From a virus, in IMG/VR virus record IMGVR_UViG_3300045988_116134, positions 1-31,363 of that record: 31,363 nucleotides of DNA, one strand, 5' to 3'. The notes under the pieces were generated by a model, which was given only the letters and a program-made list of their open reading frames with translations, was not told where the DNA came from and did not search any database. The position numbers were made by a program, and so were the translations under genes. Below, piece by piece: positions 1 through 31,363 of the stretch. Positions within the stretch are counted from its first letter, which is position 1, and every line of letters begins with the position of its first letter.

Positions 1-141
1 ATATCTTTACGATGACAAGATTGTTATTTATTTTAATGGCTCTAACAGTGCGAATACTGTAGATTATGCGACTGTTTGTGAAGATTTAAAAAAATTTGAA
101 GCAGAAGAAAAAGTTCGCATACGGAACGCTATGCCCTGCCA
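1..141. repeat. Terminal overlap: bases 1-141 are identical to 31223-31363 (circular contig closure)
   Basis: Direct comparison of both ends found no mismatch. The integrase ORF reads continuously across the junction. Confidence 0.95.
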
Positions 142-211
142 TAATGCTCAGCATACGAACTACATTATATCCAATGTGGCTTGTGTGTTCGGAATGATAG
201 CTAGACGATAA
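1..211 (+). CDS. Large serine recombinase (integrase), C-terminal end; continuation of 29844..31363 across the circular junction
   Basis: The frame starting at base 2 (YLYDDKIVIYFNGS...) is the same frame as the ORF open at 31363. The stop TAA is at 209-211. The joined ORF is 529 aa. Confidence 0.9.
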   Translation, partial: YLYDDKIVIYFNGSNSANTVDYATVCEDLKKFEAEEKVRIRNAMPCHNAQHTNYIISNVACVFGMIARR

Positions 212-227
212 GTCTAGCTATTTTTTT
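198..227 (+). terminator. Rho-independent terminator after the integrase
   Basis: TAGCTAGAC-gataa-GTCTAGCTA forms a perfect 9-bp stem followed by T7. The integrase stop codon lies in the loop. Confidence 0.75.
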
Positions 228-268
228 ATAATTTTTTTAAAAAAATTAAAGAAATTTTGAAAAAACAC

Positions 269-297
269 TTGACTTTCTACACTAATTAGTGTATAAT
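269..297 (+). promoter_or_regulatory. Sigma-A-type promoter of cassette 1
   Basis: TTGACT (269-274), 17-nt spacer, TATAAT (292-297). Confidence 0.7.
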
Positions 298-306
298 ATA
301 ATCAAA

Positions 307-340
307 GATAAGGAAAGGAAATAAAAAAACAATCCTTATC
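307..340 (+). promoter_or_regulatory. Inverted repeat in the 5' leader (candidate operator or RNA hairpin)
   Basis: GATAAGGA (307-314) - N18 - TCCTTATC (333-340), just downstream of the predicted transcription start. It is identical in copy 2. Confidence 0.45.
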
Positions 341-367
341 AAAAAATAAAAAAGTGAGGAAAATAAA

Positions 368-604
368 ATGAAAGTTGAAATCAAAAACAATCGAATCTAT
401 ATGAATGGTGTTTTGGTAACGCCTAACACCAACGGAACTAATGGCAAGACAGTTCAAGGAACTTCAGCTAAAGGTTTATGGTTCAAAGGTATTGTAGATG
501 GTAAGTCCTATACCATCTACAAGAGAGATCTAATGAAGCCTGGTGCTGACCCTTACGAGGTTCACAACGTATTCTTCAATTACTGTAGAAACGAGGTTGA
601 GTAA
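368..604 (+). CDS. Hypothetical 78-aa protein, first gene of cassette 1
   Basis: ATG is preceded by a GTGAGG Shine-Dalgarno (SD) sequence. The stop overlaps the next start (TAATG). I recognise no family. Confidence 0.65.
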   Translation: MKVEIKNNRIYMNGVLVTPNTNGTNGKTVQGTSAKGLWFKGIVDGKSYTIYKRDLMKPGADPYEVHNVFFNYCRNEVE

Positions 605-1044
605 TGAACGTGAAGAAAACCATTGAAGAGGCAGTAGCGTTCAACTGTAAGAAATTGAGCCTACCTAAGCCTACTGTTAACTATGAACCACCTACAGAAT
701 TTAACACACCGACCACAAAGGCCGGTGTGGACCCAAAAAAGATTAACACTATAGGCGTAAATACTTCAACAAAATGGGAAAGTCCTATGGAAATTTGGTG
801 GGTGATTTCCCACGAAATGCGGCATCTGTGGCAAATTCAAACTAACTACTGTAAGTTAGTTAAACAAAAATACTCTAACTTGCAAGATTATGCTAAGCGT
901 CCTGAAGAAGTAGACGCCAATGCTTGGGGAATTTATGTTACTGCGATTAAATTTCAATCTCGTCCACTGCTAGAAAACGTGTATGGTCAAGATGTGTGGA
1001 AATTAATCGCAAAGAGGTTTAATGAAATTATTGAGGGAGATTAA
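604..1044 (+). CDS. ImmA/IrrE-like (COG2856/DUF955-type) zinc metallopeptidase, 146 aa
   Basis: HExxH motif in VISHEMRHLW, plus a downstream EEVDANAWG resembling the E-x-x-AN-x-FA signature of the family. Translationally coupled to the upstream ORF. Confidence 0.55.
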   Translation: MNVKKTIEEAVAFNCKKLSLPKPTVNYEPPTEFNTPTTKAGVDPKKINTIGVNTSTKWESPMEIWWVISHEMRHLWQIQTNYCKLVKQKYSNLQDYAKRPEEVDANAWGIYVTAIKFQSRPLLENVYGQDVWKLIAKRFNEIIEGD

Positions 1045-1049
1045 AAAAA

Positions 1050-1241
1050 ATGACTTTAAAAGAATTAAGAATTAAAAAGGGACTAACTCAAGCGGAACTT
1101 GCGGAGCAAACTGGCCTTAGCATTAGACTCATACAAAAATATGAGCAAAACGCTCAAGATCTAAATCGAGTCTATGCAATTACAATTTATAGACTCGCGA
1201 AAACACTTGATTGTAGATATGAAGATTTATTAACAATTTAA
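1050..1241 (+). CDS. Small XRE-family helix-turn-helix protein, 63 aa
   Basis: LKELRIKKGLTQAELAEQTGLSIRLIQKYEQ is a canonical XRE HTH. There is a GAGGGAGA SD upstream. Confidence 0.85.
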   Translation: MTLKELRIKKGLTQAELAEQTGLSIRLIQKYEQNAQDLNRVYAITIYRLAKTLDCRYEDLLTI

Positions 1242-1248
1242 TTTAAAA

Positions 1249-1278
1249 TAACTAGACGATAAGTCTGGCTATTTTTTT
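1249..1278 (+). terminator. Degenerate copy of the integrase terminator, downstream of the HTH gene
   Basis: TAACTAGAC-gataa-GTCTGGCTA followed by T7. The stem has one A.C mismatch and one G.U pair. Confidence 0.55.
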
Positions 1279-1318
1279 ATAATTTTTTGAAAAAATTAAA
1301 GAAATTTTGAAAAAACAC

Positions 1319-1347
1319 TTGACTTTATACTCTAATTAGTGTATAAT
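1319..1347 (+). promoter_or_regulatory. Sigma-A-type promoter of cassette 2
   Basis: TTGACT (1319-1324), 17-nt spacer, TATAAT (1342-1347). Confidence 0.7.
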
Positions 1348-1356
1348 ATAATCAAA

Positions 1357-1390
1357 GATAAGGAAAGGAAATAAAAAAACAATCCTTATC
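1357..1390 (+). promoter_or_regulatory. Leader inverted repeat, copy 2
   Basis: GATAAGGA - N18 - TCCTTATC, identical to 307..340. Confidence 0.45.
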
Positions 1391-1418
1391 AAAAAATAAA
1401 AAAGTGAGGAAAGTAACT

Positions 1419-1610
1419 ATGAAAATCAAGCCTGAAAATTTAGCAAAAACTCTATTAAAAAGAGCATATCAAAATGATTTTGACGCAGAACAAGAAAAAA
1501 GCATTAATAATGTGCTTGACAGAATCAAGGAAAGTGCAGAAGCTAAAGGCAGTACCTTTGCTGATGATTATGCCGAATTTTATCAATTGTTGCTTAATCT
1601 TGCTGATTAA
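1419..1610 (+). CDS. Hypothetical small acidic helical protein, 63 aa
   Basis: ATG at 1419 lies 9 nt after the GTGAGG SD. The ORF-track start at 1404 is a GTG inside the SD itself. The protein is rich in D/E (DFDAEQEK, ADDYAEFY). Confidence 0.65.
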   Translation: MKIKPENLAKTLLKRAYQNDFDAEQEKSINNVLDRIKESAEAKGSTFADDYAEFYQLLLNLAD

Positions 1611-1621
1611 GTAACAAAAGC

Positions 1622-1656
1622 AAAAAAAGGCTACTCAATCGAGTAGCCTTTTTCTT
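1622..1656. terminator. Bidirectional terminator between cassette 2 and the endolysin
   Basis: AGGCTACTC-aatc-GAGTAGCCT forms a 9-bp stem, flanked by A7 upstream and TTTT downstream. It sits between convergent genes. Confidence 0.8.
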
Positions 1657-1667
1657 ATGCTTTATAA

Positions 1668-2621
1668 TTAATAAATGTAATAACTTCTGCCTGCGTTGTC
1701 GGAGTCAAGTAACTTTGCGTACTTGCAGCCTTTATACTTTCCACTTTCAATAGTGCAGATAATTCTGCACTTGTGACTTGATTCGATTTTTGTATCAGTC
1801 TCAAACTTTTTTTCAAACTTATCAAGTCTACGCACTCTAGTACCAGCCTTGATAGTGATAGTCTTGTAGTTAGAGTGACTGTAACTACTTCCTAAATGGC
1901 TGCCGGCCATCCAACCTACTGTGTTGCCGGCCTTGACTTTAACCCATCCGGCTCCGTCATCAGATAGTACCGTTACTGTTTTACCTTTTTTTAAAGTTTT
2001 AAGTTTTGCACTAGCATTACCGATTGGGTCCTTAAAACCGTACTTATACAGTCCTGCATTACCTTGTAGTTTAAATTTCTCTTTTTTCTGTAGTTTCTTA
2101 GTTACAGTTTTCGCCAACTTGCCTAATCGACCATAGAGCCAATTGCCTGGGCAACTCTTATTATCAAACCATCTATGGACAGTTAGCACCATTTCATCAG
2201 ACTTAGGCTTGTAGCTTAGCGACTTGCTTTTACTATTGAACCACAGTAGCTTCTTCTTGTTGTTTCTCTTGCAAATATCAACACACAAATTCACAAGAGA
2301 TTTGTATACTTTACGATTCATAGCATAAGGTTCTTCAAGTCCACTAGCACATTCAATGGTAATAGCCCTCTGGTCGTTTGCGTTACTAGAAGAACACCAA
2401 CTACGGTTTTTCTCCTCAACAACAAGTGCTACTCTACCATCTGTGCCAATACCATAGTTGCAACTTGCCTCTCTTGATGGGCTTGTAAAGCAATTACAAA
2501 TAGATTCAGCTGACAACTGACCAACCACACAATGTGGTGTGATCCTGTCAATGGTGTGGGTTCTCTGTCCTGAATGATTTGGACTTAATTTAGTTACACT
2601 TACAAGTTTACTGTTACTCAT
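1668..2621 (-). CDS. Endolysin: N-acetylmuramoyl-L-alanine amidase (Amidase_2/PGRP-like) with a C-terminal SH3b-like wall-binding region
   Basis: N-terminal motifs (ITPHC, SCNYGIG.DGR, AITIE, SCPG) fit amidase_2. The C-terminal GWVKVKAGNTVGWMAGSHL is SH3b-like. The gene follows the holin. Confidence 0.85.
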   Translation of the reverse strand: MSNSKLVSVTKLSPNHSGQRTHTIDRITPHCVVGQLSAESICNCFTSPSREASCNYGIGTDGRVALVVEEKNRSWCSSSNANDQRAITIECASGLEEPYAMNRKVYKSLVNLCVDICKRNNKKKLLWFNSKSKSLSYKPKSDEMVLTVHRWFDNKSCPGNWLYGRLGKLAKTVTKKLQKKEKFKLQGNAGLYKYGFKDPIGNASAKLKTLKKGKTVTVLSDDGAGWVKVKAGNTVGWMAGSHLGSSYSHSNYKTITIKAGTRVRRLDKFEKKFETDTKIESSHKCRIICTIESGKYKGCKYAKLLDSDNAGRSYYIY

Positions 2622-3079: not shown

Positions 3080-5100
3080 TTTTTTAACTCTCCTTCCTTT
3101 GTCATTAAATAAGTTAATGCTGTAAATTCGGCGTCTGAATATTGATAAAAGCCTTCGTCTGCTGGATGTACGCAATCTTTACAATACTCAACTGTTTTTT
3201 CAGACCTTTTGTTTACTTTTGTATTTTCCATTGTCATATTGTGTAATACATCGACTTGACAACTCATTTGCACAAAAGTTACGTAATCGTAACTATTAGC
3301 AATCTCTTGATATAGTTTGTTTAAGTCATATACATATTTATTTTGGCGAACCTGTGGCATTGTGTTACCATACGATTTGCGATAATGAGGGTACATATAA
3401 TGATAGCTTTCAAGTATGATTTTGCAATTTGGAAAACCTATGTGTGTGTTTTCAATCAACTTTTTGGCTCTCGTTTTCAAGTCAGACCAATTAAATTTAC
3501 TTGCAAAAGCACCGTTTTCGTAATCGTTCCAACCTAGCAGAATTACAAGATAATCAAGTTGTGTTTCGTTCAAAGCGTTTTGGACAAAATGTTTCATTGA
3601 GATATTGTTGTAGCTATCAACCCAAAGATAGTTGTTTGGGTATGCAGATGGTAAAGTATTAGGATTTTCGGTGTAGTTTGCCCAGCTATATCCACCTGTT
3701 CCAGTGAATTTATTACCGCTACCTTGACCAATTGACCTACCAATTAGCTTTGTGTCTGTTAAAGTAGTTTGACTTATTAAGTTAGCAGTTTCACCACTCC
3801 TTACTGCCATACCTGTAAAGCTATCACCAAGATACATAATGCGTCTTGTAGTATTAGCAAGTGCTGATATGTCAGCAACATAGATTTTAACTCTTTTACT
3901 GTCAATCACCTTGCCAAATCTGTCTAAAAGTTGAAATAATGGTAAATCGTTAGGTTTTCTCAAAGTCTCATCTGTGTAGTCAGCAGGACATTTGATAGTA
4001 ATTTTGTCACTATATTCTGTAATATATCCTGACAAATTGACAAGTCTTACATTATATTTGTTCTCAACATATTCATAGCTGCTGTAGTACATCCCATATT
4101 TAAATAGTTCAAGTGTCCCGCCTTTTTGAATATAAAAAGCGTCCGGTAAATCAAGTTTACAAATTTCGTTTGCTAATGCATATCTTGTGTCATTTTCTGC
4201 GATTGTATTAATACTTTTTCCTTTGATATGTGCTTCTGCAATCTTACTAAAGTCCGTACCACCGTACCAAAGCCAAATAATGTACTTATATCCAGCGACA
4301 GGACTAAATATAATTTTGTTTTTGGTATCTGCAATAGGTTTGACAAACTTATCGTTAGTATCATATTCAAAAACACTAGCATATAATGTTGGTCTATCCG
4401 TTGTAATTATCACATTGCTATATTGTGATAGGTCGAGTTTATTTGTTATGAAAGCTGACCCATCTTTTTCTTCGCCGGTTGCTTTGTCAATTGAACCAAT
4501 TTTATAATTGTAATGTAGATTGTAATAGCCGGTCGAAGTTGTAGATATGTCTGTCGCATTTTGCTTTATGTTAGTTTCAGACGTGATAAGTCTATTGATA
4601 ATATCATCAGCACTTTTAAGCTTGTCAATATTATCAACAAGTGTCTGTACTCTATCAGCTTTATCTTCAATGTCTTTGATTTCGATTAGTGCGTCAAGCA
4701 ACTTTCCAAACTCTCGACTTGCAACAATTTCTGATTCATCAGAGATTACAGACTCAGCAACTTTCACAATAAAAGTTGCTGAAGTTACAAACTGTTGATT
4801 GTCTTGCAAGACAACTTCGCAATTCAGTAGTCCCGGCGTATCCAACATAATCTTAGTTAATTCAACTGTGATAACATTATTTGTTGTATTAACTACAGCA
4901 GTATTGACTGCTTTAGTTTTGTTATTAATACTTGCTTTGACTGTCGCTACATAGTTACTAGATAAGGTGATAGTATTTCCATTTTCTGTGAGAGTGATGT
5001 CGATAAATCTCGTCTTGCTGTCGCCCTGATGGGCATTGAGTACCGTAAACGCTCTAGTGTCATTAACATCTAGAGTGATTTTTTGATGTTGCAGTTGCAT
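3076..5100 (-). CDS. Receptor-binding/baseplate protein: BppU_N-like N-terminus plus C-terminal SGNH/GDSL hydrolase
   Basis: N-terminus KITLDVNDTRAFTVLNAHQGDSKTRFIDITL is BppU_N-like. SGNH blocks are present: YLGDSFTG, LGWNDY, DCVHP (DxxH). The position is after Tal. Confidence 0.7.
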   Translation of the reverse strand: MQLQHQKITLDVNDTRAFTVLNAHQGDSKTRFIDITLTENGNTITLSSNYVATVKASINNKTKAVNTAVVNTTNNVITVELTKIMLDTPGLLNCEVVLQDNQQFVTSATFIVKVAESVISDESEIVASREFGKLLDALIEIKDIEDKADRVQTLVDNIDKLKSADDIINRLITSETNIKQNATDISTTSTGYYNLHYNYKIGSIDKATGEEKDGSAFITNKLDLSQYSNVIITTDRPTLYASVFEYDTNDKFVKPIADTKNKIIFSPVAGYKYIIWLWYGGTDFSKIAEAHIKGKSINTIAENDTRYALANEICKLDLPDAFYIQKGGTLELFKYGMYYSSYEYVENKYNVRLVNLSGYITEYSDKITIKCPADYTDETLRKPNDLPLFQLLDRFGKVIDSKRVKIYVADISALANTTRRIMYLGDSFTGMAVRSGETANLISQTTLTDTKLIGRSIGQGSGNKFTGTGGYSWANYTENPNTLPSAYPNNYLWVDSYNNISMKHFVQNALNETQLDYLVILLGWNDYENGAFASKFNWSDLKTRAKKLIENTHIGFPNCKIILESYHYMYPHYRKSYGNTMPQVRQNKYVYDLNKLYQEIANSYDYVTFVQMSCQVDVLHNMTMENTKVNKRSEKTVEYCKDCVHPADEGFYQYSDAEFTALTYLMTKEGELKK

Positions 5101-5102
5101 AT

Positions 5103-6299
5103 TTATTTCTCCTTTTTAAATAAATTTGCTAAAGATTTTTTAGGTGTGCCTAACTCGATAGTTGTATATCGCTCTAATAGAGAGTCAAATACTACTTTAG
5201 TTACTTTTGCCTTTGCAGTCGATTGCAAAGTTGGAAAATATACTGATACAATATCACACAACGCTATATTCTTCATTTCTTCGAGTTCGCTTTCTGTTGT
5301 AATAGTTAAAGATACCTTCGGTACTGTCAATTGATTTGCTTTAGAATACGCTTCTGTTGCATTGTAAATGTTAAGATAAACGGTTGCGCCCGGCGTGTTC
5401 ATATCCATTTTTTTAGATTTAAGTGTCTCCGTTAAATCCAATTCTAAAATTTTTCGGTGAAAAGTTATGTCACTAATAAGAGGGTACACATAAGGTCCGC
5501 CGTTCCGGTGAAGGTTAAGAATTCCGTATACGATTTCATTCGTTGAAGTATCTTTGCTAAGCTCAACTTTCACATACGGATAGATGTGTGTGTACATTTT
5601 CTCTATATTCTTTTCTTGCTGAAAAGATTTAAGGTTAACGCCATATTTAATTACAAGATCTTTTTCTGTTCCTCTTGACTTCAAAAAACTAATATCAAAG
5701 TTATTCCATTTGAATTCTCCTTTAAAAATTTGCAATAGTGATTTGGAATCGTCACCAAGAAAATCTCCAATTGTGCGAATGGAGTGTATATCTACTTTGT
5801 CTGATTCTGTTGTAATGTCACTTGCAAAAATAAATTCTTTGTCTTTAAATATTGCACCATTTTCAAAATTTTGACTATATACAAAATCAAAAATTTCTTT
5901 CGGTGTGCCGGTGTGCACACCGTATGAAAAATGACTGTCTGTAGCTAAATAATATCCACCTTGAATTAAATTGTAATTCAAAAAATAATGAATATGCCTG
6001 CCGGCAAAAGTTCTCTTTCTGTCCGTAATCGTTGAATTTTCTGAATATAGTTCAAAAATCTGTGGGACCTGCTGAGGGTTAGCCTTTAACTTGACAAATT
6101 TTCCGACTTCAACTTTTTTTGATAGTGGGTCATTATCGGAGATAACTACAGTAATTGAGCATTCAAAAATGCCATTTCTTTCTTCCGTGACGGTGCATTC
6201 TGTACATGTTGTTAAAACTCCTAGACCGTTTGTGTTAAGCAATTCTTCTTTTGTAGAGTTTTCGCTGTACAAAATTGGTAACACTATAATCGCCTCCAA
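5103..6299 (-). CDS. Tail-associated protein (Tal; prophage tail endopeptidase family N-terminal region)
   Basis: Position after Dit. The N-terminus NGLGVLTTCTECTVTEERNGIFECSI is typical of siphovirus Tal / minor structural protein. Confidence 0.7.
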   Translation of the reverse strand: MEAIIVLPILYSENSTKEELLNTNGLGVLTTCTECTVTEERNGIFECSITVVISDNDPLSKKVEVGKFVKLKANPQQVPQIFELYSENSTITDRKRTFAGRHIHYFLNYNLIQGGYYLATDSHFSYGVHTGTPKEIFDFVYSQNFENGAIFKDKEFIFASDITTESDKVDIHSIRTIGDFLGDDSKSLLQIFKGEFKWNNFDISFLKSRGTEKDLVIKYGVNLKSFQQEKNIEKMYTHIYPYVKVELSKDTSTNEIVYGILNLHRNGGPYVYPLISDITFHRKILELDLTETLKSKKMDMNTPGATVYLNIYNATEAYSKANQLTVPKVSLTITTESELEEMKNIALCDIVSVYFPTLQSTAKAKVTKVVFDSLLERYTTIELGTPKKSLANLFKKEK

Positions 6300-7024
6300 T
6301 TCGGGATGATTTTGACTTTTGTCCCTGAACTAGCTTGAACACTAATAGAATTTAAGCCAGTTGAGAGGGTCGGAAAATACACGCCATTTACACATTCGTT
6401 ATGAATTTCGCTATTCATAATACAATTTCGATTTTCTGTGTCGATAATGGCAGAACCGGTGATGTTTTTGACCGTAAAAGTGCGTCTGTTCGCGTAGAAT
6501 GTAATTGTCTTATTTTCTCCCTCGACAGAAATTAAAATTTTGGGATATGATATTTCTTGCTCAGGATTGTAAAGTGTTATTGGTGCTATAAGAGTAGCAC
6601 TACTAACATCAATAGCCTTTTGCCCCTCGTAAGAGTACAAAAACGGTTCACAAGTGAATTTTACGGTAGTCCTCATAATACCGGCATTACCGGCTAGTAA
6701 ATCAGATATATCAGTAACTATAGCGTTATAGAAACAACCTTCCATATAATCTAGATATAGTTGACTATATTCAGTACCGATAAACCATTCAGATAGCCTT
6801 TTTCCTAGCTCTGCAATATTTAGCTTGCAGAGCGTAGGAAGAAAGGCAATCTGTTCTTCAAGCTCAATTGAATTATACGACAAATTATTTTTAACAACTT
6901 TCTTGCTTCGTCCTGGGATGTCAACTAGTTCAATGTTTGGCATCGCAAACTTGCGTTTCTTCTGTTCTTCAACCACTCCGCCAAGTTCGCTTAACCAATT
7001 GTCCTTGAATTTTAAATCAAACAT
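6284..7024 (-). CDS. Distal tail protein (Dit, siphovirus tail component)
   Basis: Lies immediately downstream of the tape measure. The size and N-terminus are typical of the family. Confidence 0.65.
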   Translation of the reverse strand: MFDLKFKDNWLSELGGVVEEQKKRKFAMPNIELVDIPGRSKKVVKNNLSYNSIELEEQIAFLPTLCKLNIAELGKRLSEWFIGTEYSQLYLDYMEGCFYNAIVTDISDLLAGNAGIMRTTVKFTCEPFLYSYEGQKAIDVSSATLIAPITLYNPEQEISYPKILISVEGENKTITFYANRRTFTVKNITGSAIIDTENRNCIMNSEIHNECVNGVYFPTLSTGLNSISVQASSGTKVKIIPNWRRL

Positions 7025-27996: not shown

Positions 27997-28362
27997 ATGA
28001 CTACTGCTGATAAAATTAGAAGAGTGCGAAAACATTTCAAACTTTCTCAAACAGAGTTCGGCGAGAAGCTCGGTGTATCTGTTAACTTTATTGGTAATCT
28101 TGAACAAGGCAGAACAGAATTAAAGCCTTTAACGGCTCAGCTAATAAGTAGAGTTTTCGACGTCAATCCTTTATGGCTGGAAACCGGTGAGGGCGAAATG
28201 CTTATTGAGACTGATAGAGTTATTACTGATGAACTGTCGAAAAAATACAAATTGACGAACTTACAAGAAAAAGTTTTACTTAAGTATCTAAATTTAGATA
28301 CTAAACAAAGAGAAATAGTTGCTCAAGCAGTAGAGTTGTTGGCCAACGATTCTAAAGACTAA
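27997..28362 (+). CDS. CI-like XRE-family repressor, 121 aa, no S24 peptidase domain
   Basis: KLSQTEFGEKLGVSVNFIGNLEQGR is an HTH. The gene is divergent from the early operon. Confidence 0.85.
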   Translation: MTTADKIRRVRKHFKLSQTEFGEKLGVSVNFIGNLEQGRTELKPLTAQLISRVFDVNPLWLETGEGEMLIETDRVITDELSKKYKLTNLQEKVLLKYLNLDTKQREIVAQAVELLANDSKD

Positions 28363-28773: not shown

Positions 28774-29805
28774 ATGAAGAAAAAGAAATCAGCATTAAAC
28801 ATTGCAGGGATCATCTGTATATCAATCGGAATTATCGGGCTATTGGGACTATTTACTGAGAACGACAAGTTGAACTTGTTTCTTGGCTCAGCTTTTTTAA
28901 TTGTGCTTGGCTTTATTTTTATTGCAATTAACAAATTTACTCATAAAGACAGTAAAAATAACACATCTAATAACATCAATTTACAAAATCAACAACAAAT
29001 TAATAATAGCATTACTGCTGTACCGATTCAGGAAGAAAAGAAAGAAATCAAGAGCTTTACGCTTGATGAAGCTATTAATGTATATTGTTGTACTGAACAT
29101 AGTAGTTGTCCTGCTGTCTATGACTATAAGCAGTACTTTACTGATGCTTTTAACTGCATTGCGGATCATGTAGCAGAACATAAGACTATATTGAGTAATG
29201 ACAAAGTATTGAGAAAGAAAGAATTACACAATCCAATTGTGAATTATAAGAATATAACTAAAACTACTAACTGTAATAAGATTAAGAATTTTGTTGCAAT
29301 TGACTGCGAAACAACCGGACTCAAGGTTGGAGGCAATGACATCATCGAACTTGCAGCAGTTAAGTTTGTTGATTTTAAACCAACAGAAAAATATCATACA
29401 TATTTAAAGCCAAGAAATCCAATCCCAGCTGATGCAACTGCCATTAACCACATCACCGACGAGATGGTGGCTAATAGTCCGCTTTTTGCACAAGTATGTG
29501 CAGATTTTCAAAATTTTGTGCAAGATTTTGCAATAGTTGCTCACAACGCAGGTTTTGATATGAAGTTTCTTCACGTTAGTGGTCTTGATTTATCAAAACA
29601 CACTGACAAGGTTTATGATACTTATACATTAGCAAAAAACAAAATTAAAGGCTTAGATAGTTATAAGCTATCTAGCTTGTGTGAGGAGCAGAACATACAA
29701 TGTAGTAACTATCATACTGCACTTGCTGATGCACTAGCGTGTGGAATACTCTTTGTCGATATTATTAAGATTGTCAAAGAAGTTAAAAATGTAGAAGAAT
29801 TATAA
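28774..29805 (+). CDS. Membrane-anchored DEDDh (DnaQ-like) 3'-5' exonuclease, 343 aa
   Basis: Two N-terminal TM helices (IAGIICISIGIIGLLGLF, LGSAFLIVLGFIFIAI). ExoI is AIDCETTGL, ExoII is VAHNAGFDMKFL, and ExoIII is YHTALADA (H-x4-D). Confidence 0.8.
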   Translation: MKKKKSALNIAGIICISIGIIGLLGLFTENDKLNLFLGSAFLIVLGFIFIAINKFTHKDSKNNTSNNINLQNQQQINNSITAVPIQEEKKEIKSFTLDEAINVYCCTEHSSCPAVYDYKQYFTDAFNCIADHVAEHKTILSNDKVLRKKELHNPIVNYKNITKTTNCNKIKNFVAIDCETTGLKVGGNDIIELAAVKFVDFKPTEKYHTYLKPRNPIPADATAINHITDEMVANSPLFAQVCADFQNFVQDFAIVAHNAGFDMKFLHVSGLDLSKHTDKVYDTYTLAKNKIKGLDSYKLSSLCEEQNIQCSNYHTALADALACGILFVDIIKIVKEVKNVEEL

Positions 29806-29834: not shown

Positions 29835-29843
29835 GAATTAAAA

Positions 29844-31363
29844 ATGAATGAAAAAATTAACGCGGTGATTTATGCTAGATTTTCTAGCCACAACCAACAA
29901 GAGCAGTCTGTTGACGGTCAAGTCCGTTACTGCACTCAGTATGCAGAAGCTCACAATATGCGAATAATCGGCACATATGTTGATAGAGCCATGTCCGGAA
30001 CTAATGATAACAGACCCGACTTTCAGCAAATGATTAAGGACAGTGAAAACAAGCAGTTTCAGGTGGTCCTCGTTTGGAAGTTTGACCGTTTCGCTCGCAA
30101 TAGATATGATAGTGCTTTTTATCGTAGAGCATTAAAAAATAACGGTGTTACTGTCACATCAGTGACGGAAAGCGTGGGTGAAGGCTCAGAGGCTATTATA
30201 CTTGAGGCTATCCTTGACGCCATGGCAGACGCTTACTCTAAGCAGTTAGCAGAAAATGTTAAGCGTGGAATGAGAGAATCAGCGTTAAAATGTCAGACCA
30301 TCGGCGGGTGTACTCCACTTGGCTATGATGTAGTTAATAAAATGTATGTAGTCAACAAAGAAGAAGCCGAAATCGTTAAGTACATTTACAGGGAGTACGC
30401 AGACGGCAAAGGCAAGAAAGAAATCATAACTGAGCTAAATAACAGAGGCTACAAGACTAAGAGAGGCAAGAAATTTACAATCACAAGCTTGTCGCAACTG
30501 TTAAAAAATAAAAGGTATATCGGTATCTATGTATATAAGGATATGGAAATCAAAGACGGTATTCCGACGATTATTGACGAAGAATTATTTTATAAAGTTC
30601 AAAAAGTGGCGCTAAGAAATAAGCGTGATGCCTCACGCAAGAAAGCAAAGGTTGAGTATCTGCTGAGCGGTAAACTGTTCTGCGGCCACTGTGGTGAAGC
30701 TATGTTGGGTGAATCTGCTGTAAATCATAGTGGATATAAGTACTACTACTATGTATGTGGCAGCAGAAAGAAAAAATTGAGAATTTGTGACAAAAAGAGA
30801 GAAAAGAAAGAAGGCATTGAAGAATACTGTGTTCGTCAGGCTCTCAGCTTTTTCTCTGACAGAAAGAATTTGCAGTTGATTGCAAGAAAGGTTGTAGATT
30901 TATACAACTCAGAAATTGACAACGGACAAGTTGAAGTTCTAGAGCAGAATAAGATTAAGCTAGAAAAACAACTTGATGAACTTACTAACGCTCTTGTTAA
31001 AACATCAAATGTTAGAGTTTTATCAAAACTAAATGAACAAATTAATACTATTGACGAGCAACTATCTACTATAGATATAGAAATAGCAAGAGAAAAATCT
31101 CTTGCTACGGCTAAAATGTCTGTAGATGATGTTGTTGGATTTGTAGAAAGTCTGATCCGAGGAGGTGACATTAAGGATAATAAATTTAAAAAACAAATTA
31201 TTAATGTATTAATTAATAGGATATATCTTTACGATGACAAGATTGTTATTTATTTTAATGGCTCTAACAGTGCGAATACTGTAGATTATGCGACTGTTTG
31301 TGAAGATTTAAAAAAATTTGAAGCAGAAGAAAAAGTTCGCATACGGAACGCTATGCCCTGCCA
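29844..31363 (+). CDS. Large serine recombinase (integrase), N-terminal 506 codons; continues at base 1
   Basis: Starts MNEKINAVIYARFSSHNQQEQSVDGQ (catalytic Ser region). Other features are VVLVWKFDRFARN, a recombinase domain, a CGHCG...C zinc-ribbon region and a coiled coil. The ORF has no stop before the window end, so it is missing from the ORF track. Confidence 0.92.
   Translation, partial: MNEKINAVIYARFSSHNQQEQSVDGQVRYCTQYAEAHNMRIIGTYVDRAMSGTNDNRPDFQQMIKDSENKQFQVVLVWKFDRFARNRYDSAFYRRALKNNGVTVTSVTESVGEGSEAIILEAILDAMADAYSKQLAENVKRGMRESALKCQTIGGCTPLGYDVVNKMYVVNKEEAEIVKYIYREYADGKGKKEIITELNNRGYKTKRGKKFTITSLSQLLKNKRYIGIYVYKDMEIKDGIPTIIDEELFYKVQKVALRNKRDASRKKAKVEYLLSGKLFCGHCGEAMLGESAVNHSGYKYYYYVCGSRKKKLRICDKKREKKEGIEEYCVRQALSFFSDRKNLQLIARKVVDLYNSEIDNGQVEVLEQNKIKLEKQLDELTNALVKTSNVRVLSKLNEQINTIDEQLSTIDIEIAREKSLATAKMSVDDVVGFVESLIRGGDIKDNKFKKQIINVLINRIYLYDDKIVIYFNGSNSANTVDYATVCEDLKKFEAEEKVRIRNAMPC
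31223..31363. repeat. Terminal overlap, second copy
   Basis: Identical to 1..141. Confidence 0.95.

Follow-up and report, generated by a model that had tools for sequence, protein, structure and literature searches.

Why does a virus genome carry two near-identical blocks of non-coding DNA, about 1 kb apart, beside the end of its integrase gene? This question was raised by the IMG/VR record IMGVR_UViG_3300045988_116134, of which positions 1-31,363 (the whole stretch of 31,363 nucleotides, hereafter the window) were analyzed together with related loci gathered for comparison, designated by L-numbers. Each block precedes a small accessory operon. Slot A contains three open reading frames (ORFs) for proteins of 78, 146, and 63 amino acids (aa), the last of which is an XRE-family helix-turn-helix (HTH) protein, and slot B contains one 63-aa ORF. 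All are on the plus strand and converge on the lysin gene (1668-2621, minus strand). We interpret the blocks as two expression sockets of a fast-changing, two-slot regulated accessory locus that resembles anti-CRISPR (acr)-anti-CRISPR-associated (aca) operons and likely serves anti-defense, a reading to which we assign a probability of roughly 0.6.

The duplicated module and its candidate operator

A repeat search detected a direct repeat of 145 nt (222-366 and 1272-1416) with 94% ungapped identity and a spacing of 1050. Gapped alignment widened the repeat to approximately 197-366 and 1248-1416, with about six substitutions and a 1-nt indel in a T/A tract. This confirmed the near-identical non-coding blocks described in an earlier note on this DNA (hereafter the original prediction). 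The elements it had assigned to each copy, a hairpin followed by seven T (T7), a promoter, an 8-bp inverted repeat, and a GTGAGG Shine-Dalgarno (SD) sequence, were all verified in both. Their order is hairpin with T7, A/T-rich tract, promoter, inverted repeat, A-rich spacer with GTGAGG, and ATG (Table 1). The integrase stop codon was located in the loop of the first hairpin (TAA in GATAA), and the decay of the second stem at two positions corresponded to one mismatch and one G-U pair, both as claimed. An Rfam search of positions 1-1800 gave no family match, only sub-threshold terminator-like ones. The first hairpin would end integrase transcription in the circular form of the genome, and in a lysogen it would end read-through from the host tRNA and insulate the promoter.

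Being a metagenome-style contig whose ends overlap by a k-mer length (141 bp), the window might contain the two copies as an assembly artefact; alternatively, they might be a recent private tandem duplication without function. We give these explanations practically no credence. Copy 1 was base-identical in L160, L161, and L165, and copy 2, including its private differences, was base-identical in L160, L161, L162, L163, and L166, all assembled from separate samples and studies. At least five independent assemblies reproduce the two copies exactly, private differences included, which refutes the artefact and supplies the exclusion that the original prediction had asked for. Two modules were also present in at least 13 related loci with different cargo, which argues against an artefact and a private duplication alike. 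The two copies are thus real; a recent local duplication, however, does not explain them, as the two-module architecture is conserved throughout the phage family.

A 16-bp palindrome overlapping the −10 hexamer was present in every module copy and had been overlooked in the original prediction. In the window, TACACTAATTAGTGTA matched only twice, both times in a module and in copy 2 with one mismatch, where 0 matches are expected by chance; there was no third site. The pattern TACNCTAATTAGNGTA was kept in all relatives whose HTH is at least 81% identical, varying solely at its two symmetric N positions. L130, whose HTH is 53% identical, has the palindrome TATACGC-N6-GCGTATA in this place instead, and L131 has TATACGCCTA-A-TAGGCGTATA together with an unrelated C-terminal HTH fused to another domain. 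From these comparisons, the TACNCTAATTAGNGTA palindrome appears to be the likeliest operator, and its change together with the HTH is the signature expected of an operator for a dimeric HTH. Aca operators lie at a promoter position like that of this palindrome (PMC12658196, PMC13551039).

The inverted repeat in the leader, GATAAGGA-N18-TCCTTATC, also had only two matches in the window (307-340 and 1357-1390; 0 expected by chance). Its stem of 8-9 bp starts about 3-4 nt after the predicted transcriptional start site (about +3 to +37) and ends 27 nt before the ATG, and the hairpin was kept in 14 of the 17 module variants. In the original prediction, the HTH was proposed to bind this DNA at +4 to +37 as a roadblock operator. 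The repeat exists, in both modules and nowhere else in the window, and the compensated arm changes in relatives would be equally compatible with a DNA palindrome and an RNA stem. The operator role is nevertheless very doubtful and probably wrong: the repeat has been deleted from the HTH's own promoter in L124 (h1), L173 h1 retains a decayed form, L130 and L131 lack it, and the better-placed palindrome overlaps the −10 hexamer in every copy. In addition, the half-site centers of the leader repeat are 26 bp apart, which would be unusual for a dimer of a 63-aa XRE protein.

The leader repeat appears dispensable, fits a 5′ RNA hairpin better than a DNA operator, and most likely acts on RNA. Two stem alleles, GAUAAGGA/UCCUUAUC and GAUAAAGG/CCUUUAUC, differ by compensated changes at two of the eight pairs, with 96% of cells paired. 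Stabilizing hairpins at the 5′ terminus are known in Firmicute mRNAs. Two readings fit: the leader hairpin may be such a stabilizer or, by analogy, an RNA site in the 5′ untranslated region (5′-UTR) of the Aca type (PMC13551039). The right arm (UCCUUAU) can also pair with the SD region (GUGAGGA) if the left arm is unavailable (−5.1 kcal/mol; 333-359 and 1383-1409), which would make a translational switch possible. The leader was rejected as a widespread motif, as an IMG/VR search for GATAAGGAAAGGAA-N-TCCTTATC gave one chance match inside a coding region (L123).

Two slots and cargo turnover in related loci

Approximately 30 related loci were found by searches with the hairpin, the upstream tract, and homologues of the 146-aa protein and the HTH. 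Two hairpin-led modules were present in every locus long enough to judge (the window, L124, L134, L135, L142, L160-L165, and L167-L174), and L130 and L131 carry a single module. Module 1 follows a tRNA or the integrase end, and module 2 starts about 10 nt after the HTH stop codon. The 63-aa XRE HTH (81-100% identity) is encoded by the last slot A gene in all two-module relatives. An IMG/VR locus search with the 63-aa HTH itself gave only generic XRE matches and was not used.

The other cargo differs among the two-module relatives, so that the same module flanking different genes, for which a search had been proposed in the original prediction, was found. Slot A contains genes for 78 and 146 aa; for 78, 150, and 104 aa and a zinc-ribbon-HTH protein; for an acidic 50-aa and a 280-aa protein; or for 161, 103, and 283 aa. 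Slot B contains a 163-aa gene, a 63-aa remnant, genes for 50 and 143 aa or for 99 and 61 aa, or an insertion of the IS200 type followed by genes for 50 and 114 aa. The 163/161-aa and 50-aa families occur in either slot, and, overall, about ten orphan families move between the slots and from phage to phage. In single-module L130, slot A comprises a 5′-truncated ParB-like remnant, a 68-aa AcrIC5-like gene, and a gene for a 127-aa protein; L136 carries a full-length 131-aa ParB-like gene, with a ParB-like N-terminal domain, after its module. Except for the AcrIC5-like (L130) and ParB-like (L136) proteins, the cargo families of the relatives had no match in Pfam, PHROG, PADLOC (which covers known defense systems only), NCBIfam, or the PDB. 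PDB sequence searches gave nothing significant for the 78-, 146-, 163-, 280-, 143-, and 104-aa proteins.

The single 63-aa gene that copy 2 was claimed to drive is present as an ORF but is not an intact gene. L124 encodes at 2189-2680 a 163-aa form with the same C-terminus, and the slot B ORF consists of the first two and the last 61 codons of the 163-aa gene; thus, it is an in-frame deletion remnant. It had no family match in Pfam or in further family and PDB searches. The last approximately 50 codons of the 163-aa family (YQNDFDAEQEKS...YQLLxNLAD) persist beside the bidirectional terminator in nearly all relatives, even in the locus-deleted L133/L138, which suggests a function of that piece or a protected boundary. 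In L167-L172 (e.g., L167 3728-4415), an IS200/IS605-type element with a Y1 transposase and GC-rich hairpin flanks is located exactly between the T-run and the promoter of module 2 and splits the terminator from the promoter.

The modules do not group by position, as copy 1 of the window most resembles the slot B modules of L134 and L135 (94%). Private variants are common to both copies of one genome, namely TTGGCT in L142, TTAGCGTA plus AAGAAAAAC in L173, and GGAGGTAAC in L174. These sequence patterns point to exchange and occasional homogenization of modules. To this extent they fit the suggestion that the repeats would allow cassette loss or gain by homologous recombination. Precise repeat-by-repeat deletion was not seen: the related loci included no copy 1-copy 2 cassette deletion derivative, and decay has come about by illegitimate deletion, which destroyed the promoter. 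In L132/L137, the promoter breaks off at −35 and is joined to the interior of the 163-aa gene, and L133/L138 have almost everything deleted. A copy 1-copy 2 deletion would cost the locus its HTH and free slot B from repression, and may therefore be selected against.

Anti-CRISPR link and competing explanations

The 68-aa protein of L130 matched Pfam PF22147 (AcrIC5) with an E-value of 1e-21 (77 bits against a cutoff of 27) and PDB entry 7YHR with an E-value of 3e-9. Its gene lies between the module and the HTH gene, with one gene intervening before the latter. AcrIC5 homologues are spread widely in Firmicutes (PMC7913775); orthologues are known from Firmicutes and Actinobacteria and have served as guilt-by-association bait in Clostridia (PMC7913775; 10.1101/2023.05.22.541795). 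AcrIC5 is linked to aca1 in Pseudomonas and to an AP2 protein in Cryptobacterium (10.1101/2023.05.22.541795), and among the cas operons of gut assemblies, type I-C is reportedly the most frequent (PMC11324757). By homology, anti-defense is proven only for this AcrIC5-like gene of a sister phage; for the cargo as a whole, it is the most likely function.

The layout of the window is that of acr-aca operons, as far as sequence can tell. A small co-directional HTH gene is terminal, an inverted repeat overlaps the promoter, and a second operator copy is present in module 2 at the adjacent operon without its own HTH, slot B. The structured RNA motif of the extended acr-aca layout, which follows the transcriptional start site and ends about 20 nt before the start codon, has its counterpart in the predicted leader hairpin. 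The acr-aca match claimed in the original prediction thus stands for the strong promoter, the small variable cargo, the terminal small HTH, and the shared palindrome, but not for a known Acr within the window's own cargo; the only member of a known anti-CRISPR family is that of L130.

From the two-module architecture, the shuffled cargo, the HTH gene at the end of slot A, and the confinement of the palindrome to the two promoters, we infer binding, repression, and timing as follows. Both promoters would fire strongly on phage entry and produce an early burst of transcription. The HTH dimer made from slot A would then bind the palindrome in both promoters and establish negative feedback. Slot B, which has no regulator of its own, would be under the same control in trans, in the way that Aca proteins run acr-aca and neighboring anti-defense operons. 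The shared sockets would also supply homology for cassette exchange and within-genome homogenization.

Several observations weigh against this interpretation. The 78-, 146-, and 63-aa cargo of the window matched no known Acr, anti-defense, or defense family in Pfam, PHROG, PADLOC, NCBIfam, or PDB sequence searches, and the anti-CRISPR link comes from one sister locus, L130, on a 3.5-kb contig. The HTH has no similarity to Aca11; its PDB matches to Aca3 (E 0.31) and Aca1 (E 0.48) are in the twilight range of about 0.3-0.6 and below generic XRE matches, and its nearest solved relatives are restriction-modification (R-M) controller proteins (E 0.004-0.07), again at the generic XRE level. Operator-HTH co-variation comprises only three classes, and the palindrome is imperfect in most copies. 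The right arm of the palindrome extends into the −10 hexamer, so promoter constraint may account for some of the conservation. The covariation of the leader hairpin is essentially one event, and 30 of 500 shuffles reached the observed value. The higher similarity of modules within than between genomes (87.4 vs 84.3%) is not significant and only a trend (295 of 5040 permutations).

A serious rival, which we regard as possible but on balance unlikely, is that the slots carry ordinary lysogenic-conversion morons, which benefit the lysogen by superinfection exclusion, defense, or fitness, with the HTH as a housekeeping autoregulator that has no anti-defense role. The moron concept, which Hendrix and Juhala are said to have put forward in 2000, reportedly describes an inserted gene, located between the lysis genes and att, that has a promoter and a terminator of its own. 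The classical moron position is the prophage end by att, as in streptococcal prophage toxin genes. The present locus lies at such an end, on the strand opposite to the lytic genes. Both slots have their own promoters and are bounded by terminators (Table 1), and their cargo is variable or absent in relatives; that of the window is orphan and has no PADLOC defense match. Position, orientation, and a strong constitutive-type promoter fit lysogen-expressed morons equally well, which is a further point against an anti-defense locus. What speaks against plain morons is the AcrIC5-family gene in the same slot of a sister locus and the small size and strong acidity of many cargo proteins (the 50-aa and 143-aa families), typical of DNA-mimic inhibitors. 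Moreover, the combination of terminal HTH, promoter palindrome, and 5′-UTR hairpin matches the published acr-aca architecture (PMC13551039, PMC12658196).

The 146-aa protein raises another possibility. It contains an invariant HEMRH motif, with EEVDANAW about 27-30 residues downstream, and its model resembled IrrE N-terminal-like and SprT-like viral proteins in BFVD (E 3e-4 to 1e-3, TM about 0.6); PDB folds gave a weak minigluzincin likeness (best abylysin, E 0.35). It had no PF06114 (ImmA/IrrE) match in Pfam, scored below threshold for DUF6782 (20.7 bits against a cutoff of 27), and had no PHROG, PADLOC, NCBIfam, or significant PDB-sequence match. Based on the motif and the predicted structure, it is read as a minimal zinc-metallopeptidase-like protein. 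It could form with the 63-aa HTH a pair of the ImmA/ImmR, CapP/CapH, or Xre-COG2856 toxin-antitoxin type, in which a signal would prompt the protease to cleave the repressor, and the module would govern induction or abortive infection instead of anti-defense. The two genes are adjacent and co-directional, the spacing of HExxH and the downstream Glu is as in IrrE/ImmA, the predicted fold agrees, and the HTH had weak matches to capH and antitoxin HTH models (in PADLOC, to a generic HTH only). We consider this pair improbable. Apart from the missing Pfam match and the sub-threshold DUF6782 score, the same HTH follows a 280-aa protein in L134, L135, L139, and L167, a 127-aa protein in L130, and an unrelated gene also in L174, and the phage has a separate CI-like repressor. 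Furthermore, protease homologues of 55% identity lack this HTH and occur among long runs of small early-type genes. The pairing is thus not conserved, which weakens the ImmA/ImmR-type explanation.

These homologues (L126-L129, approximately 4195-6700) lie in long same-strand runs of small orphan genes in 200-kb gut scaffolds. Their neighbors include PemK, SSAP/Sak, SSB, and PDDEXK genes and a tyrosine integrase, so that the region looks like the early or accessory region of another mobile element. The 78-aa and 146-aa genes were rejected as a conserved pair, as the distant 146-aa homologues follow an unrelated upstream gene. The 78-aa protein had no Pfam, PHROG, PADLOC, NCBIfam, or PDB-sequence match and no significant PDB fold match. 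Its fold unit is repeated 5-13 times in giant proteins of 0.4-2.7 thousand aa with weak or strong Tudor/SH3-like and fn3 Pfam matches, and is rare as a stand-alone protein.

An extended form of the acr-aca-like interpretation is speculative and rather unlikely. The socket could be a portable standard that serves as a homologous-recombination landing pad for swapping regulated anti-defense cassettes. Different bacterial classes would have its scaffold in common (Ruminococcus-type and mitis-group Streptococcus prophages), the operator palindrome alone being exchanged to suit the local HTH. In the window, it would perhaps be coupled to the IrrE-like mini-protease, which might cleave the Aca-like repressor or a host XRE-type defense regulator and cause signal-dependent derepression of anti-defense genes.

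Genomic setting and comparison with known systems

Table 1 Features of the accessory locus and its surroundings in the window.
Feature	Position	Strand	Evidence and remarks
attP crossover region, CTGCCA core = host tRNA-Gln 3′ end	133..146	.	inside integrase ORF; junctions of integrated relatives
Large serine integrase, main body	29841..31363	+	534-codon ORF across circular junction, resumes at 142-211; Pfam Resolvase + Recombinase + Zn_ribbon_recom
Integrase ORF 3′ end	1..211	+	frame-2 translation ...GMIARR*; stop TAA 209-211 within hairpin loop
Module 1 intrinsic terminator	196..227	+	hairpin 196-222, 11-bp stem, GATAA loop, T7 221-227; −15.9 kcal/mol, z −6.4
Module 1 A/T-rich tract, UP-element-like	228..268	+	read from sequence; conserved across 18 module variants
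Module 1 sigma-70-type promoter TTGACT-17-TATAAT	269..297	+	11/12 match
Module 1 candidate operator, perfect 16-bp palindrome TACACTAATTAGTGTA	278..293	.	fills spacer, overlaps −10
Module 1 leader inverted repeat GATAAGGA-N18-TCCTTATC	307..340	+	predicted 5′-terminal RNA hairpin, −8.8 kcal/mol, z −3.9
Module 1 Shine-Dalgarno GTGAGG	354..359	+	read from sequence; invariant in module alignment; ATG at 368
Slot A gene 1, 78 aa, small beta-sheet + C-terminal helix	368..604	+	ORF; AF2 pLDDT 93
Slot A gene 2, 146 aa, minimal HExxH zinc-metallopeptidase-like (IrrE/SprT-like fold, DUF6782-like)	604..1044	+	ORF, motif, AF2 pLDDT 84
Slot A last gene, 63-aa XRE-family HTH, candidate Aca-like autorepressor	1050..1241	+	Pfam HTH_19/HTH_3/HTH_26, E about 1e-10
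Module 2 terminator	1249..1278	+	hairpin about 1249-1270, one mismatch + one G-U, 6 clean pairs, −9.9 kcal/mol, then T7
Module 2 promoter TTGACT-17-TATAAT	1319..1347	+	11/12 match
Module 2 candidate operator TACTCTAATTAGTGTA	1328..1343	.	one arm mismatch
Module 2 leader inverted repeat / predicted 5′ RNA hairpin	1357..1390	+	same GATAAGGA-N18-TCCTTATC pattern
Module 2 Shine-Dalgarno GTGAGG	1404..1409	+	read from sequence; ATG at 1419
Slot B gene, 63-aa ORF	1419..1610	+	in-frame N-terminal deletion remnant of 163-aa family, residues about 3-102 lost
Bidirectional intrinsic terminator closing slot B and lysin gene	1622..1655	.	−21.2 and −23.5 kcal/mol on two strands
Endolysin (Amidase_2 + SH3)	1668..2621	−	Pfam + PHROG matches; final lytic gene, convergent with accessory locus

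End-to-end comparison showed that the terminal 141 bp of the window are identical (1-141 and 31223-31363). With this overlap of k-mer length, the window is a circular contig of 31,222 bp, and the phage in the sample was probably a circle, either excised or replicating. On the minus strand, a 26-kb train of lytic genes ends with the holin and then the endolysin gene. The plus strand carries a CI-like HTH repressor as a separate gene (27997-28362), a membrane-anchored DEDDh exonuclease, and a 534-aa large serine integrase. The exonuclease gene (28774-29805), located upstream of the integrase gene, encodes an N-terminal membrane segment and a C-terminal DEDDh (RNase_T/DnaQ-like) domain and is an unusual lysogeny-module partner.

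In integrated relatives, the 3′ end of tRNA-Gln(CTG), ...CCTCTGCCA, is directly followed by TAATGCTCAGC..., which matches the window from about position 136 onward. These relatives map the crossover to approximately 136-141, thus within the integrase ORF. Consequently, the last approximately 22 integrase codons, the hairpin, and module 1 are left at the lysin-side prophage end, and in lysogens module 1 lies about 60 nt from the tRNA and the prophage end, beside the lysin gene (e.g., L160 2519-2660 and L165 2519-2650). The lysin-proximal position claimed for the locus was therefore supported. tRNA-Met(CAT) is the integration target in L137, L139, and L142; a tRNA 3′ end is an unusual target for a serine integrase. 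The hairpin or the repeat as (pseudo-)attP was ruled out, as the crossover falls outside the duplicated block.

The major capsid protein was closest to those of Clostridia phages (Terrisporobacter, Butyrivibrio, and Ruminococcus; about 40% identity), no phage record matched the first 25 kb of the window in megablast, and close relatives are labeled Ruminococcus sp. or Acutalibacteraceae metagenome-assembled genome. Judged by these similarities, the window is a temperate phage of a Clostridia gut host of the Ruminococcus/Acutalibacteraceae type. A Streptococcus host, suggested by the approximately 80% promoter similarity to PH10, phiARI, and Dp-1, was ruled out by the Clostridia-like capsid, the megablast result, and the labels of the relatives. 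With a Clostridia host, the analogy to Listeria acrIIA loci drawn in the original prediction holds for the lysin-end position but not for the host, and is positional only.

Compared with known protease-repressor systems, the locus shows partial likeness. ImmR/ImmA of ICEBs1, DdrO/IrrE, and CapH/CapP each combine an XRE repressor with an IrrE-like metalloprotease. As in these systems, an HExxH...E protease-like gene with a predicted IrrE N-terminal-like fold stands beside an XRE HTH gene; unlike in them, the protease is much smaller (146 aa), has no PF06114 match, and is not constantly paired with the HTH. R-M controller (C) proteins such as C.BclI, C.Esp1396I, and C.AhdI, the nearest solved relatives of the HTH, are small XRE dimers that autoregulate via promoter-overlapping palindromes, but no R-M genes are present at the locus and the similarity is generic. 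Phage morons share the terminator-promoter-gene(s)-terminator units at the lysin/att end on the strand opposite to the late genes; the present locus differs in one standardized regulated socket, one proposed trans-acting regulator, and a fixed pair of slots. The AcrIC5 family (PF22147; 7YHR) has a member in slot A of L130 upstream of a homologous HTH, but none in the window itself, and its known linkage partners differ from this HTH.

A further parallel is the lysin-distal end module of mitis-group Streptococcus prophages (PH10 ORF54-52, phiARI). Its scaffold is about 80% identical over approximately 87 nt and comprises a hairpin with a T-run, AAAACNCTTGACTTTCT, a spacer palindrome, and TATAATATAATCAA(A)GATAAGGAAAGG. 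It likewise lies beyond the lysin gene on the opposite strand, with small ORFs ending in an HTH of about 59 aa. The palindrome, however, is CGGTATACCG, AAGGAAAGGAGG is directly the SD sequence without a second arm, and a single module occurs in a different host class. The HTH there is Aca11-like (37% identity over 38 aa) and unrelated to that of the window. Positions 232-319 of the window were about 80% identical to non-coding DNA of L001 (60-165, PH10), L002 (60-165, phiARI0923), and L003 (2490-2560, lytic Dp-1). A 26-nt core, TATAATATAATCAAGATAAGGAAAGG, occurred in more than 119 IMG/VR contigs (including L004-L122) with varied −35 regions, spacers, and cargo, including a hicA. The promoter scaffold is thus common to different bacterial classes. 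By sequence, the PH10-type end locus, with three small ORFs of which the last encodes the 59-aa HTH, may be an unrecognized acr-aca11-like locus.

Clostridia of the Ruminococcus type abound in the gut; their tractable phages are few, and no anti-defense genes have been characterized for them. The present locus offers a handle for guilt-by-association searches, with a conserved 63-aa HTH, a recognizable promoter socket, two slots, and about ten orphan families, one of them an AcrIC5 homologue. It is a compact natural example of one proposed regulator coordinating two insulated operons via duplicated promoter-operator-leader units. In practice, it could supply candidate inhibitors and a candidate new Aca family for Clostridia.

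The closest known systems are acr-aca operons (Aca11 and Aca1/2/4/12/14). Aca11 binds near-identical inverted repeats in two near-duplicate promoters, those of acrIIA25.1-aca11 and acrIIA3-AP2, in a Streptococcus prophage, possibly via a duplication event (PMC12658196). Aca1/2/4/12/14 control multiple operons with 5′-UTR RNA hairpins, and most Aca families are predicted to regulate neighboring anti-defense operons (PMC13551039). Control of two promoters by one regulator is therefore a known principle. The present locus shares with these operons the strong promoter, variable small cargo, a small HTH gene in last position, the promoter-overlapping palindrome, and the prophage location. It further shares an adjacent operon without regulator that has a near-identical promoter and palindrome, and an inverted repeat directly after the transcriptional start site that ends about 20-30 nt before the start codon. 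It differs in that the HTH is unrelated to Aca11 and not convincingly Aca1 or Aca3, the predicted host is a Clostridia gut anaerobe, and the window has no known Acr. The repeat here also includes the complete upstream terminator and delimits whole insulated cassettes, with an operator role predicted from sequence. New elements are the host group, the HTH family, the presence of a full terminator in the duplicated unit, and the orphan cargo families as a set.

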